From a virus: a DNA stretch of 64,000 nt. The stretch lies in IMG/VR virus record IMGVR_UViG_3300045988_082835; one strand, given 5' to 3'. The notes beneath the pieces are model-generated. The model searched no databases. It was not told the origin of the DNA and worked only from the letters and a program-made list of their open reading frames with translations. Below are positions 37,738 through 55,693 of this stretch, piece by piece. Position 1 is the first letter of the stretch; every line of letters starts with the position of its first letter. The position numbers were made by a program, and so were the translations under genes.

Positions 37738-37811
37738 TTCCGAATAGTCTAATGGTTGGACATTTTAATTGAAATAAAAAGTTATGGGTTCGAATCCCAT
37801 TTTGGAAGCCA
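37738..37811 (+). tRNA. class-I (short variable loop) tRNA with anticodon UGA (Ser UCA family); U1:A72, G73, G10
   Basis: clean cloverleaf; anticodon stem ttttа/taaaa, loop ATTGAAA. Confidence 0.55.
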
Positions 37812-37889
37812 TCTAGTGCCTTGAAATTATTTGAAAAACTTTTATAAATATGATATAATATTTATAGAAAGTGAGAGAGGAAGTTGTTT

Positions 37890-38099
37890 ATGGATAAGAA
37901 ATTATACCTCGCGCAACTTGCCGCTAAGGCCATGTCCTGTTACAGCGATGAAGATGTAGTTTGTGATAGCCTTTGGCTTATGAATGGCGGCATTGGTGGG
38001 CCAGAGGAACAGTGGGAAAACTTTCTCAAGGTTTTTAAGGATACCTTTGGTATTTCCTATGATGAAGCTAAACAACTGAATCTTTTTGAAAAACAATAA
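37890..38099 (+). CDS. hypothetical small protein
   Basis: ORF track 37884..38099; ends ..EKQ* inside the next promoter. Confidence 0.45.
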   Translation: MDKKLYLAQLAAKAMSCYSDEDVVCDSLWLMNGGIGGPEEQWENFLKVFKDTFGISYDEAKQLNLFEKQ

Positions 38100-38289
38100 A
38101 AAATATGTTATAATATTTATATAAGGCAGATACAGCAAATTATTTACAAATAAAACGCTTATTTTGGTTTAAGAAAGTTTATTTATTCTGCCTTGAGCTT
38201 GGGTCGGTAGCTCAGAAAAATTTTTGGGTAAAGTGAGCTAAAGATAATTCACTAATTCTTATATATTATATAAAGGAGAGTGAATTGTT

Positions 38290-38811
38290 ATGCCGACAGC
38301 GTTGGATTTAACTGGACAAAAATTTGGAGCATTAACAGCAGTTTCAAAAGCTCCAAGTAGAAGTGGTAAAACATATTGGCTATGTAGATGTGAATGTGGG
38401 AACGAGAAAGAAGTTTAGACAGGTCATTTAACTTCTGGAGCTATTTAGAGCTGCGGATGTAAGTAGCATTTAAAGAAAAATAGTGGAAAAAATGTAGTTA
38501 ATTTTAGAAAACGAATTAAGCTAGCATTGGTGGAAGGTTTTTCTCATAAATGCTCTTACTGCGGATTGCGGGATGCACCTCAGTTATACGACTTTCATCA
38601 CGTTGACCCATCTACAAAAAGTTTTGGTATCGCAAATTCTTCTACTACAAGAAGTAAATAGGCTTATGCAGATGAAGCAAAAAAGTGTATAATGCTATGT
38701 GCTAATTGTCACAGAAGAATTGAAAATGGTCTAATTTCTTTAGATGATTTTACGCCAATCTTATTTGATGAAGAGAAGTATTTCAAAACTCTTGAGGATT
38801 TGATTTCATAA
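38290..38811 (+). CDS. HNH homing endonuclease with N-terminal LTGQKFG Zn-finger module, TAG-recoded
   Basis: FHHVDP...CANCHRRIE HNH motif; several in-frame TAG. Confidence 0.6.
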
Positions 38812-38821
38812 TCCTCAATAT

Positions 38822-38895
38822 GGATCGCTAGTTCATCGGTAGAACGCAAGGCTGTTAACCTTGATAGCATGGTTCAACTCCATGGCGATCCGCCA
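38822..38895 (+). tRNA. tRNA-Asn(GUU)
   Basis: loop CTGTTAA; acceptor ggatcgc/gcgatcc; CCA encoded. Confidence 0.85.
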
Positions 38896-39021
38896 GAGTC
38901 AAGTTTGTGAGTAGCGTCGTGACTTTAACCCTAAACTCTCAATTCGTCCACTGCGAAGGAAAATAAAAGGCTGGCCCAATAGAGCGACGGGTGGTTCTGA
39001 AACAAATAGTTGCTCTTTTAT

Positions 39022-39098
39022 GTTCTCGTGGCGCAATAGGCAGACGCGCGTGGCTTAGAACCACGATGTTGCGAGTTCGACTCTCGCCGAGAACACCA
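39022..39098 (+). tRNA. class-I tRNA with anticodon UAG (Leu CUA family) and A73
   Basis: anticodon stem cgtgg/ccacg, loop CTTAGAA, 5-nt variable ATGTT, T-arm gcgag-ttcgact-ctcgc. Confidence 0.55.
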
Positions 39099-39196
39099 AA
39101 GAAGAGTCGCGAAAGGATCTGTCCAGAAAAAATTTGTATCACAAGAACTTCCGGTGTAGCTCAGTTTAACCGTCTGGCCGGCTCTTCTATTTATAT

Positions 39197-39283
39197 GCAC
39201 CTGTGGTGGAATTGGCAGACACGACAGCTTGAGGGGCTGTTATTCGAAAGAGTGTGCAGGTTCGAGTCCTGTCAGGTGCACCA
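39197..39283 (+). tRNA. tRNA-Leu(GAG), class II
   Basis: loop TTGAGGG; 15-nt variable arm; A73. Confidence 0.85.
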
Positions 39284-39423
39284 TGGTTTCTACTGATTTT
39301 CCATGACCAATAAGTCAGAAGTGTGATATATGCGAACGACGAGGCGCAAAGCACACGGGGTGCGTACGACCCTTCCTCGCCTTATTTGGTGGCGTAGTTC
39401 AGTAGGCTAGAACGTCGGCCTGT

Positions 39424-39891
39424 CTTGGAGATTAATAGAGAATATCTTTAGAGGGAGGATTGATAGCATTGGAGAAATTAAATCCATCCCAGATTGGAGA
39501 TATTACAGAGCTTAAATGTTAGGCGTATTTAATTGAGAATGGTTGGAATGTTCTTATTCCGATTGGAAATCATCAAAAGTATGATTTAGTGATAGAGAAG
39601 AACGGCAAATTCTATAAAATTCAAGTAAAACACGCTATGCCGGTAGAGGAAACTGGATTTCTTGTTCGTACTAAATATGAAGTGCGAGAAAATGGAAAAG
39701 TTAAAAAAATGACTTATTCTGCTAAAGATGTAGACTATTTTATGACAGAGTTTAATGGAAGGTTTTATATGTTCCCTGTTTTTGGAACAGTAGAGACTAA
39801 GTTTTGGACTGTTGCCACAAGATTATCTACTCAAAAGCAGGCTAAAGATTTTAAAGCTGAAGATATTCTATCCACACTATAATCACTAAGG
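39424..39891 (+). mobile_element. intron-like insertion in tRNA-Asp anticodon loop (possible group I intron)
   Basis: 5' exon ends in U, insert ends ..CTAAGG; carries a homing-endonuclease ORF. Confidence 0.5.
39469..39882 (+). CDS. PD-(D/E)XK homing endonuclease, I-Ssp6803I-like, one in-frame TAG
   Basis: ITELKCQAYLIENGWNVLIPIGNHQKYDLVIEKNGKFYKIQVKHA; TTG start after GAGGGAGG. Confidence 0.55.
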
Positions 39892-40146
39892 CACGCCGAA
39901 GGTCACGGGTTCAAACCCCGTCGTCATCGCCAATTTGAAAAACAATAAAAAATATTGTATAATGTTTATACAAGGTTGAGAAAGAACAAAGTATCGCAAG
40001 TCGTATATAGGCAGCGATAGCGCGCAAGTGAATCAGCAATGCGGTGTCCCCTTTGGGTTGATGCCTGGCACATTGGACTGTAGTAGCCGATAAATTAGAG
40101 CGTAGTTCTCCTTGATTGACACGACCAATCATCTTAACCATAGTAT

Positions 40147-54147: not shown

Positions 54148-54170
54148 TATAAGGGCTTCGGCCCTTTTAT

Positions 54171-54260
54171 GGCGGAGTGGCCGAGTGGTTGAAGGCACTA
54201 GTCTTGAAAACTAGAGACGCTGAAAGGCGTCCGTGGGTTCGAATCCCACCTCCGTCGCCA
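54171..54260 (+). tRNA. tRNA-Ser(UGA), class II
   Basis: loop CTTGAAA; long variable arm; G73. Confidence 0.9.
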
Positions 54261-54282
54261 TTTTATACAAGGGGATAGAGTA

Positions 54283-54450
54283 ATGCGCTGGTTAGTCAAC
54301 TATATCCGACAAGTTTTTTGTAAACACGAATTTGTTTTTAGTGAAGGATGGGCTGAAACTTCCAATAGCAGCGGTTCATTTCATCGAGGAATGAAAGTTT
54401 CATGTTATTGTAAAAAATGCGGCTATCACAAATCCTGGTGGAAATTTTGA
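54283..54450 (+). CDS. small Cys/His zinc-ribbon protein (55 aa)
   Basis: CKHEF...CYCKKCGYH. Confidence 0.3.
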   Translation: MRWLVNYIRQVFCKHEFVFSEGWAETSNSSGSFHRGMKVSCYCKKCGYHKSWWKF

Positions 54451-54496
54451 CAATAAAAAATTTTTTTGATATAATACTTATAGAAAGTTGAAAGAT

Positions 54497-54826
54497 ATGA
54501 GCAACTGTTTAGACTGTGATAAATGTTGGGTCGTAAAAGACCCTGACCCAGAGGATGATACTTGTTTAGCTGTTTTCTGCTCAGAGTCTAAAGCAAGAGG
54601 AATGAAATGCAACGAAATTTCGTATCTAATGCCTTTAGGTTATAATTCCGCGTTTGCAGAAAGTCCTCTTCCGGTAAACCCATGGATTACAGTAGCAAGT
54701 CATTGGTCTGAGCTAAGAGAAAAATGCGAAATTCCTGATTGGTGTCCATTAAACGGGCTTACATCAGGAACATACAGAGATGCGACTGATAGAACATCAG
54801 TTGCTATTATGCAAGAACGACAGTAA
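54497..54826 (+). CDS. Cys-rich hypothetical protein
   Basis: ORF track 54488..54826; promoter 54447..54475. Confidence 0.45.
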   Translation: MSNCLDCDKCWVVKDPDPEDDTCLAVFCSESKARGMKCNEISYLMPLGYNSAFAESPLPVNPWITVASHWSELREKCEIPDWCPLNGLTSGTYRDATDRTSVAIMQERQ

Positions 54827-54918
54827 CATAAGACACTAACAGCTATCTTTACATAAAGTAAATTTTATTTTTTTTCAAATACTTGTAGGTTTTTAATATA
54901 GTGTCTTGATATGTATGT

Positions 54919-54993
54919 TGCGGAGTAGCGTAATGGTTAGCGCAGGGGTCTCTAAAACCTCGGGAGTGGGTTCGAATCCCACCTCCGCTGCCA
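54919..54993 (+). tRNA. amber suppressor tRNA(CUA), Gln-like identity (U1-U72 unpaired, G73, G10)
   Basis: anticodon stem ggggt/acctc, loop CTCTAAA gives anticodon CUA; canonical D- and T-arms, CCA encoded. Confidence 0.8.
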
Positions 54994-55011
54994 ATAATAA
55001 GGAGGTCTAAC

Positions 55012-55329
55012 ATGGGAAAGTCTCGTAAGAAAACCCCGGCTGTATCTTCTATCTCTTATAATGGAGGAAAGAGAAGAGCCAATAAAAAAGTTAGAAGGCT
55101 CCTTAAAGACCCGGAAGTAAACTTTGATAAAGGGTCTTTTAAAAAGGCTTATTGCTCTTGGGATATTCGAGATTATCGAGAAGTAGCTCCTTCCTTTGAA
55201 GTTTTTTCAGAGAGATGGTTGGAAAGATGGAAGAGAAATAGAGCTAGGCTAGGAAGGAGAAATCCTGAAACTCCTCCCACCAGAAAAGAGCTTTGGCAGA
55301 CATACCAGAGATGGTACTTGAGAAAATAA
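55012..55329 (+). CDS. small highly basic protein (105 aa) directly after the suppressor tRNA
   Basis: ORF track; RBS AAGGAGG. Confidence 0.5.
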   Translation: MGKSRKKTPAVSSISYNGGKRRANKKVRRLLKDPEVNFDKGSFKKAYCSWDIRDYREVAPSFEVFSERWLERWKRNRARLGRRNPETPPTRKELWQTYQRWYLRK

Positions 55330-55417
55330 ATCCTTCCTTTCTTTTAACCGCGAGAGAGTTATCTTAAATAAATACTAATAGCTCTCTCGCATTTCTTTTA
55401 TTGAGGAGTTGGCAATT

Positions 55418-55630
55418 TATGTGGCAAAATAATATTGAATTTTTAGATATTATTTCGATTATTTCTTTTGTGCTTTAGTTGCAAAATGCTGAAAGTCACG
55501 AAGTGGAAAGATTAAGAAATGAAGTTTCTAAACGCTTTGATGAACAAACCAAAATTCTGTTAGATGCTATGAACAGTAAATTGGACAGAATTGAAATGAT
55601 GCTCAAAGATTTAAATGCTCGAGTGGGCTA
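55418..55630 (+). CDS. small protein with N-terminal TM helix and coiled-coil, one in-frame TAG
   Basis: RBS GAGGAG; 3' end overlaps the next tRNA. Confidence 0.35.
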
Positions 55631-55693
55631 ATTGGTATAGCCGTCAAGCTCAAACCTTGATGTTTGTGAGTTCGAGTCTCACCTCGAGTACCA
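55617..55693 (+). tRNA. class-I tRNA with anticodon CAA (Leu UUG family) and A73
   Basis: canonical 77-nt cloverleaf; loop CTCAAAC; 5-nt variable TGTTT. Confidence 0.55.

Follow-up and report, generated by a model that had tools for sequence, protein, structure and literature searches.

Armless leucine tRNAs and a probable Y-RNA-like tRNA mimic in the tRNA array of a TAG-recoded gut phage

The window analysed here is a 64,000-nucleotide (nt) stretch of viral DNA (IMG/VR record IMGVR_UViG_3300045988_082835) which originates from a large TAG-recoded gut phage. It encodes three tRNA-shaped genes with the anticodons UGA, UAG and CAA, all folding as class-I cloverleafs with short variable loops. 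According to a review of tRNA identity, Leu and Ser tRNAs are long-armed everywhere save in animal mitochondria (PMC9976931). We favour, with a probability of roughly 0.6, a joint reading in which the UAG and CAA genes are true type-I (armless) tRNALeu and the UGA gene is the tRNA-like module of a Y-RNA-like RNA. Both leucine genes most likely decode normally, and the third is most likely a tRNA mimic within a small Y-RNA-like molecule linked to a Ro60-like protein. The initial annotation had grouped the three genes together; as an observation this holds, as a single phenomenon it does not, because the two leucine tRNAs differ from the UGA gene.

At the coordinates summarized in Table 1, ARAGORN called cloverleafs of 74, 77 and 77 nt (anticodons UGA, UAG and CAA, in this order throughout), and the Rfam tRNA model matched them with 59.9, 59.8 and 59.8 bits (gathering score 29, E of about 2e-10). 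Reading of the sequence gave 7-nt anticodon loops, U33 and an encoded CCA for all three, variable loops of 4, 5 and 5 nt and the discriminators G, A and A. Both programs confirmed the class-I cloverleafs with these anticodons; neither a hidden long arm nor another anticodon is possible. The reported class-II genes for Ser(UGA) and Leu(GAG) were recovered as well, the one for Leu(UAA) only as a split gene. The view that all three cloverleafs are extra molecules did not hold, since only the UGA tRNA repeats an anticodon already present, while the UAG and CAA tRNAs are the sole carriers of theirs in the window.

Armless leucine tRNAs

The D arm of tRNALeu(UAG) is of the Leu type, with U8 and G9, a GCG/CGC stem and the loop AAUAGGCAGA. 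The same organization is found in both leucine genes (U8 G9, a stem of 3 base pairs (bp), a loop of the form AAYNGGYAGA, U48 and A73). They keep U8:A14, A15:U48, G18G19 and A73, which is every known determinant of leucyl-tRNA synthetase (LeuRS), and lack the long variable arm of class II, having 5-nt loops. For the E. coli enzyme A73, A15-U48, G18G19 and A20a matter, while the arm and the anticodon do not (PMC9976931). With the anticodon masked, the nearest neighbours of both genes among 1,633 unique phage tRNAs were almost all Leu tRNAs. Comparing tRNALeu(UAG) with its orthologue in locus L353, three compensatory double changes were observed. Using an alignment of 35 type-I tRNALeu of 77 nt, U8, A14, A15, G18, G19, A21, U33, A35, U48, A73 and CCA were found invariant. 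The cloverleaf was 98.9% paired, compared to 58% in shuffles, and all 20 pairs showed compensatory two-sided changes. Among 113 unique class-I Leu tRNAs, A73 was present in 109, U48 in 110 and the D-loop motif in 93. A G1-U72 wobble as first acceptor pair was seen in 18 of the 35 aligned sequences, including the CAA gene of the window, and also in a class-II Leu(CAA) orthologue (L584).

For a family search the Leu-type D arm was combined with the class-I spacing to the T loop. This pattern matched at least 120 viral contigs. In the matched loci plus phage phAss-1, 95 short tRNAs with Leu, Ser or Tyr anticodons were called (90 Leu, 1 Ser, 4 Tyr). The phage phAss-1 (‘Caudoviricetes code 15 clade’), the closest relative of the window phage in the cultured collection, carries two armless tRNALeu genes. 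In viral loci not selected for Leu, class I was found for 42 of the 96 unique Leu-anticodon tRNAs and for 5 of the 92 with a Ser anticodon; as relatives of this phage are overrepresented among these loci, the resulting Leu share of 44% is no census. Searching cultured phages by blastn with a 77-nt Leu tRNA yielded nothing at E ≤ 1e-3. Raising the limit to E ≤ 10 gave usable tRNALeu matches, and tRNALeu of 75–77 nt were found in Proteus phage 1, Vibrio phage V09 and mycobacteriophage LeBron. The tRNALeu(UAG) of phage T5 is class II, not armless. In GTDB genomes the pattern matched mostly non-tRNA DNA, and ten class-I Leu tRNAs were found, 8 of them within arrays of 12–34 tRNAs per 8 kb. Judged by their sequences, armless tRNALeu are widespread in phage genomes and dense bacterial tRNA arrays; the phage family is large and under-recognized. 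The initial statement that Leu tRNAs are always long-armed is thus wrong for phages, cultured ones included.

The armless genes stand in the place of class-II genes. The leucine set of the window comprises UAG and CAA in class I, GAG in class II and UAA as a split class-II gene. In relatives, anchored for this comparison on a CYTH-like protein inside the tRNA array, Leu(UAG) and Leu(CAA) are each either class I or class II, and both classes for one anticodon were never found in one locus. The 84-nt class-II Leu(UAG) of locus L294 agrees with the window gene in the entire anticodon arm and in most of the D arm, the essential difference being its 13-nt variable region. Leu(CAA), Cys(GCA) and the Ro60-like gene form, in this order, a conserved block, with a Leu(CAA) of 77 nt in the clade of the window and of 82–87 nt elsewhere, which makes the window gene the positional orthologue of these class-II genes. 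The Leu pair is therefore not additional, but replaces class-II orthologues at the same positions. Both tRNAs would be derived from class-II tRNALeu that lost the variable arm and kept the other LeuRS elements. Each exon of the split Leu(UAA) gene is 100% identical to the uninterrupted gene of locus L285. Its insert carries an HNH endonuclease open reading frame (ORF, 48551–49078) and lies at the classic position of the tRNALeu group I intron; a search of the insert for Rfam group I introns gave no match.

By analogy, charging of both armless tRNAs by the host LeuRS is plausible. In Streptomyces coelicolor a natural type-I tRNALeu(CAA) is charged by the organism's own LeuRS (ScoLeuRS; PMC6614811). 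Like the phage genes, this tRNA and animal mitochondrial tRNALeu combine a Leu anticodon with a class-I cloverleaf whose variable loop is short. The S. coelicolor molecule also coexists with class-II tRNALeu and keeps U8:A14, there with a single LeuRS. Different from it, the genes described here reside in a phage, are members of a very large family from phages and tRNA arrays in which A73 is invariant, and their charging is predicted. The same study calls type-I tRNALeu rare in prokaryotes and does not mention phages (PMC6614811). Minimal or armless E. coli tRNALeu variants (Larkin et al., 2002, as cited in PMC9976931) are described there as dependent on A73 and the D-loop/T-loop tertiary contacts and not on arm or anticodon, and the elements needed are all present here; those variants were engineered and active in vitro, while the window genes are natural and under purifying selection. 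A short-variable-loop tRNALeu(TAG) in a mycobacterial tRNA gene cluster received a one-sentence remark (PMC6582537). This molecule is of the same kind and lies in a tRNA cluster that looks mobile; it was presented without the family-level or identity analysis given here. In the literature searched, no paper treating armless tRNALeu as a phage-wide feature was found. In the proposed mechanism the host LeuRS, blind to the anticodon and, in the bacteria studied, to the arm, would charge the UAG and CAA tRNAs, which would then decode CUA/CUG and UUG as leucine for the phage. Loss of the arm may be neutral, LeuRS ignoring it; it might remove the risk of SerRS (seryl-tRNA synthetase) recognition in foreign hosts; or it might permit escape from enzymes that read the long arm.

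The meaning of the codons was deduced from 80 related loci fetched via the large terminase (68–97% identity), by comparing the structural genes of the window codon by codon with relatives below 90% identity. Columns of window UCA were Ser at 0.57 (UCU 0.52, AGU 0.44), with swaps to UCU, AGU and AGC. For CUA and UUG, Leu was found at 0.69 and 0.75 (0.64–0.74 for other Leu codons), and both swap with other Leu codons, including those of the other Leu box. The TAG codons, many of which stand in frame in the structural genes, align to CAA and CAG and thus to Gln. A reassignment of sense codons was rejected on these grounds. Insertion of a different amino acid at a useful rate by the three tRNAs is disfavoured, because UCA, CUA and UUG align to Ser, Leu and Leu, and so is the earlier suggestion of charging by a different synthetase.

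A Y-RNA-like cassette around the UGA cloverleaf

The UGA cloverleaf belongs to a different family, its D arm and 4-nt variable loop being of the kind seen in phage tRNAGlu and tRNAGln. A close relative (L126, 97–99% nucleotide identity) has the same UGA gene, and the syntenic copy of the next clade lacks CCA and carries the 8-nt loop ACUCAAAG. A search of IMG/VR with an exact 43-nt pattern built on this cloverleaf retrieved nothing, the closest relative differing at one base; further family members were recovered with a D-arm pattern. Nine members carry the anticodons UGA, UGA, ACA, CCU, GCA, GCA, UCC and AAC and, in one case, an 8-nt loop. They are 94.4% paired with double changes at 16 of 20 pairs and an invariant D arm. 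The acceptor stem is only 87% paired, the discriminator can be any of the four bases, and most members lack CCA. Neither a tRNASer nor any other isoacceptor evolves in this manner. As anticodons and discriminators vary in the family and acceptors are imperfect, and as SerRS could not use the molecule, the gene was judged not to be a tRNASer. That SerRS requires the long arm, as initially stated, is correct (PMC9976931); the UGA cloverleaf lacks this arm, and neither its anticodon nor its G73 is conserved in orthologues. Of the discriminators initially assigned to Ser and Leu, A73 of the Leu pair stands, while G73 as a Ser mark appears coincidental, the orthologues having any of the four bases together with other anticodons. 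The real decoder of UCA is likely the class-II tRNASer(UGA), and the early idea of a non-translational role looks right for the UGA tRNA. An interpretation as frame-shifted tRNAGln or as opposite-strand tRNA was rejected, since T loop, D loop and CCA fit the plus strand only. The phage T5 RNA1, RNA2 and RNA3 are comparable as tRNA-like RNAs among phage tRNA genes. However, T5 RNA3 has no sequence similarity to the UGA-cloverleaf family, and to our knowledge T5 has no Ro60 link.

Two features of Y RNAs were found at the UGA cloverleaf. The 5' and 3' ends of the surrounding cassette lie in a closing helix with a conserved motif, ACAGCAA, on the 5' strand, and the cassette encloses a tRNA-like module, here the full cloverleaf. 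The closing stem covaries in relatives (AAGACAT/ATGTCTT, GGACGCTT/AAGCGTCC, AAGACGC/GCGTCTT). In 80 loci with a Ro60-like gene the motif ARGRC(N1-3)..WACAGCAA occurred in 92 instances, 76 of which had an exact closing stem within 330 nt, compared to 6 for shuffled stems. Per 100 kb it was found 2.4–3.2 times in regions with tRNA arrays, compared to 0.07 times in the structural regions of these phages and 0.11 times in bacterial loci. A total of 95 unique cassettes of 55–286 nt were collected, and 18 of these clearly show a V hairpin, a T arm, an acceptor-like stem-loop and a D arm, which is the order of the YrlA Y RNA architecture (PMC4201824). Only 8 of the 1,189 tRNA calls in these loci fall inside a cassette, and all 8 are odd ones. 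In addition to the UGA cassette, the window holds three others with closing stem and ACAGCAA (Table 1). The YrlA-type one at 47028–47151 runs in the order closing stem, ACAGCAA, V hairpin, T arm, acceptor-like stem-loop, D-like arm and anticodon-like hairpin, the same architecture as in cassettes of loci L561, L578 and L579.

Y RNAs with tRNA-like domains are documented in Ro60-encoding bacteria and phages (PMC4201824). The likeness to Yrn1 of Deinococcus radiodurans and YrlA of Salmonella and Mycobacterium consists in an RNA of about 100 nt with paired ends, a 5'-strand motif and a tRNA-like module (PMC4201824; RF02553), in genomes that encode a Ro60 or, here, a Ro60-like protein and with several paralogues per genome. 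The topology of the UGA cassette (closing stem, D arm, anticodon arm, T arm) is the order of Deinococcus Yrn1, and that of 47028–47151 (T arm, acceptor loop, D arm) the order of YrlA. Differences are visible in the motif, which is ACAGCAA here and GNCGAA there, and in the UGA module, which is a complete cloverleaf whose anticodon stands in a 7-nt loop and changes rapidly. One cassette of a relative (L519:8739-8855), located 1.1 kb upstream of the Ro60-like gene of that locus, matches the Rfam family YrlA (RF02553) over its full length with 34.8 bits (E 2.4e-6), which does not reach the gathering score of 69.

The candidate protein partner is encoded by the ORF at 56015–57538. At the sequence level only DUF2828 and DUF7788 were found in Pfam, and not TROVE, the domain family of Yrn1 and YrlA partners; phmmer against PDB gave nothing significant and NCBIfam nothing. 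An AlphaFold (AF2) model built from 28 homologues reached a predicted local distance difference test (pLDDT) score of 79.3 and a predicted template modelling score (pTM) of 0.72. The top 10 Foldseek matches in PDB were all Ro60, full length, with E values down to 1.6e-6 and template modelling (TM) scores of 0.39–0.57, and included Xenopus, human, Deinococcus and Thermus phage phiLo proteins. In this model the protein has the TROVE ring and von Willebrand factor A (vWA) fold. Relatives were found in at least 309 viral contigs. We infer that the UGA cassette RNA is a partner of this protein. The module would be part of a Y-RNA-like RNA of about 108 nt, whose predicted 5' and 3' ends pair beside ACAGCAA, and this RNA would partner the Ro60-like protein instead of decoding. 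The Ro60-fold gene is followed by one for an 807-amino-acid protein with Major Vault Protein repeat and shoulder domains (57919–60342). Such a protein was found in 39 of the 80 Ro60-like loci, usually just downstream of the Ro60-like gene.

Alternative explanations

Several observations weigh against the joint reading. For the leucine tRNAs these are the enriched origin of the class-I share given above and the failure of E. coli LeuRS to charge the type-I tRNALeu of Streptomyces (PMC6614811), so that LeuRS compatibility depends on the host enzyme. For the UGA gene, the YrlA match of L519 remains below the family threshold, and the window cassettes match neither Y_RNA of Rfam nor, at E values up to 10, YrlA. 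The spacer upstream of the Ro60-like gene of the window likewise gave no match to these two models. Different from Yrn1 and YrlA, the UGA cassette lies 18 kb from the candidate Ro60-like gene, while known Y RNAs are usually adjacent. The family members in L349, L354 and L360 have a different flank arrangement. Unlike most relatives, the window copy combines a perfect acceptor stem with an encoded CCA, so that a tRNA-sized product could be cut from it by RNase P and RNase Z. Finally, the Thr, Pro, Ile(UAU) and Leu(UAG) tRNAs of the window are also leader-trailer paired. Because ordinary tRNAs here share this pairing, the flanking helix alone is not diagnostic, and it was rejected as a feature unique to the UGA tRNA; the specific signature is ACAGCAA together with the closing stem.

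Instead, the UGA cloverleaf might be a decoy or escape variant directed against host defences that target tRNAs, and the same may apply to the armless Leu tRNAs. The shifting anticodon of the UGA family would then track the nuclease specificities of hosts, and arm loss would hide tRNALeu from enzymes reading type-II tRNAs. We consider this unlikely as the primary explanation. The anticodon loops of the family do keep U33, R37 and canonical loop sequences, and the anticodon changes between close relatives. Moreover, evasion of anticodon nucleases by phage tRNAs has been described (PMC10264068), the long variable loop of tRNASer is required by the MenT3 toxin (PMC11541572), and bacterial Schlafens cleave tRNAs (PMC13056530). 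However, no defence system or nuclease was linked to these loci, the Schlafen studied is not specific for type-II tRNAs (PMC13056530), and the cassette architecture, common to YrlA-type RNAs, points to a Ro60 partnership instead. A decoy role is compatible with the joint reading and does not exclude it.

Quite unlikely is also an ordinary spare tRNA that reads UCA, the flanking helix being only a processing signal for its release from the precursor by RNase P and RNase Z. Besides the perfect acceptor stem, G73 and CCA of the window copy and the leader-trailer helices of other array tRNAs, it is favoured by locus L294, where a GCA family member is the only tRNA with a Cys anticodon among 29. 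It conflicts with the long arm required by bacterial SerRS (PMC9976931), with the canonical Ser(UGA) gene in the window, with the unconserved anticodons and discriminators and imperfect acceptor stems of the orthologues, and with the rarity of tRNA calls inside cassettes.

That the armless Leu genes are decaying, non-functional copies would fit the rejection of one natural type-I tRNALeu by E. coli LeuRS (PMC6614811). It is highly improbable given the nearly complete pairing, compensatory changes at all 20 pairs, invariant identity nucleotides, encoded CCA and sole possession of their anticodons.

Least credible of all is that the three tRNAs are extra decoders charged with a non-cognate amino acid, causing deliberate mistranslation or sense-codon recoding of UCA, CUA and UUG. 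The phage already recodes TAG and charging of the Glu/Gln-type UGA body by a non-discriminating glutamyl-tRNA synthetase (GluRS) is imaginable, but GluRS reads the anticodon, UCA behaves like UCU and CUA and UUG like other Leu codons, and the only identity set found in the Leu tRNAs is that for Leu.

The surrounding tRNA array and its meaning

Table 1. Coordinates of the main features in the window.
Feature	Position	Strand	Remarks
Y-RNA-like cassette around the UGA cloverleaf	37715..37822	+	AAGGCAC (37715–37721) pairs with GTGCCTT (37816–37822); ACAGCAA at 37724–37730
tRNA-shaped module, anticodon UGA	37738..37811	+	Glu-type D arm UAGUCUAAUGGUUGGAC, 4-nt variable loop, all-A/U anticodon stem, G73, CCA
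Short cassette	38123..38194	+	same closing stem and ACAGCAA, without tRNA-like cargo
Endonuclease ORFs: HNH, PD-(D/E)XK (two copies), LAGLIDADG	38290–38811, 39460–39882, 44683–45192, 49286–49690		among tRNA genes
Type-I (armless) tRNALeu(UAG)	39022..39098	+	variable loop AUGUU (5 nt), A73, encoded CCA
Canonical class-II tRNALeu(GAG)	39197..39283	+	ARAGORN, Rfam, sequence reading
Cassette with structured cargo	46308..46444	+	same closing stem and ACAGCAA, 120-nt structured cargo
YrlA-type (permuted) cassette	47028..47151	+	minimum free energy −37.8 kcal/mol, z −4.76
Split class-II tRNALeu(UAA)	48321..49196	+	exons 48321–48355 and 49145–49196; 789-nt insert between U34 and A35
Canonical class-II tRNASer(UGA)	54171..54260	+	ARAGORN, Rfam, sequence reading
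Type-I tRNALeu(CAA)	55617..55693	+	variable loop UGUUU (5 nt), G1-U72, A73, encoded CCA
Ro60-fold protein (predicted)	56015..57538	+	Pfam DUF2828 and DUF7788; candidate protein partner of the cassettes

ARAGORN called 29 tRNAs between 37.5 and 55.9 kb of the window, all on the plus strand. By ARAGORN and Rfam, a suppressor tRNA(CUA), a transfer-messenger RNA (tmRNA) and a ROOL RNA were also identified. The tmRNA (44377–44707) lies inside the array. The full-length ROOL RNA (350 bits, 47254–47849) sits between two tRNAGln genes, directly after the YrlA-type cassette. The endonuclease ORFs among the tRNA genes could bring about a mosaic evolution of tRNAs by gene conversion. Between 37500 and 56000, (T)ATAT stands immediately 5' of nearly every tRNA gene, and the leader-trailer complementarity of the Thr, Pro, Ile(UAU) and Leu(UAG) tRNAs extends over 6–8 bp. 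Together these suggest a precursor-processing signal common to the tRNA array.

Several further tRNAs of the array are unusual. The tRNAIle(UAU) at 37581–37675 (95 nt) is of a class-I isotype but carries a long extra region, a variable region of about 25 nt with the direct repeat TTAGCG; this form is identical in the close relative L126, and the version of L285 is normal (76 nt). A tRNA seen by Rfam only (48116–48235, 50.9 bits) has an insert of about 47 nt in the anticodon region, which holds ACAGCAA and two hairpins, and ends in ACCG, not ACCA. In the amber suppressor tRNA(CUA) (54919–54993), U1 faces U72, the discriminator is G73 and the variable loop measures 4 nt. Its 17-nt T arm is identical to that of the class-II tRNASer(UGA) located 660 nt upstream, and the two also agree in 5 of 7 acceptor-stem bp. 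In relatives TAG nevertheless aligns to Gln codons. The tRNACys(GCA) beside the Ro60-like gene was considered as a Y RNA and rejected, as it is a normal U73 tRNACys, long-armed in some cases. An 87-nt form with U73 and a long variable arm is found upstream of the Ro60-like gene in many relatives (L513:9671, L518:9862, L584–L587 at about 9720). Such long-armed tRNACys are the reverse of the armless tRNALeu and suggest an evolutionary fluidity of the variable arm within the tRNA arrays of these phages.

A bolder interpretation, which we regard as speculative and rather doubtful, connects these elements. Large TAG-recoded gut phages would possess a Ro60-like/vault-like gene pair with Y-RNA-like RNAs, one lineage of which surrounds a complete cloverleaf with a fast-changing anticodon. 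In the course of an infection the tRNA mimic of this particle might recognize, sequester or protect certain tRNAs, codons or tRNA-directed host enzymes. Independently of this, tRNALeu might have shed its arm repeatedly in phages, to free leucine identity from the SerRS/LeuRS discrimination of hosts or for invisibility to defences directed at type-II tRNAs.

Armless tRNALeu make up a large share of the phage Leu tRNAs in our sample and mark mobile bacterial tRNA arrays, raising the questions which host LeuRS accept them and why phages discard the arm. The UGA gene illustrates how the label ‘tRNA-Ser’ can be given by tRNA finders to a sequence that probably serves as tRNA-like domain in a small Y-RNA-type RNA. 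This matters for the annotation of phage tRNA repertoires and for the inference of genetic codes. Furthermore, the gene points to a Ro60-like ribonucleoprotein system, divergent from the known ones, in abundant gut phages.

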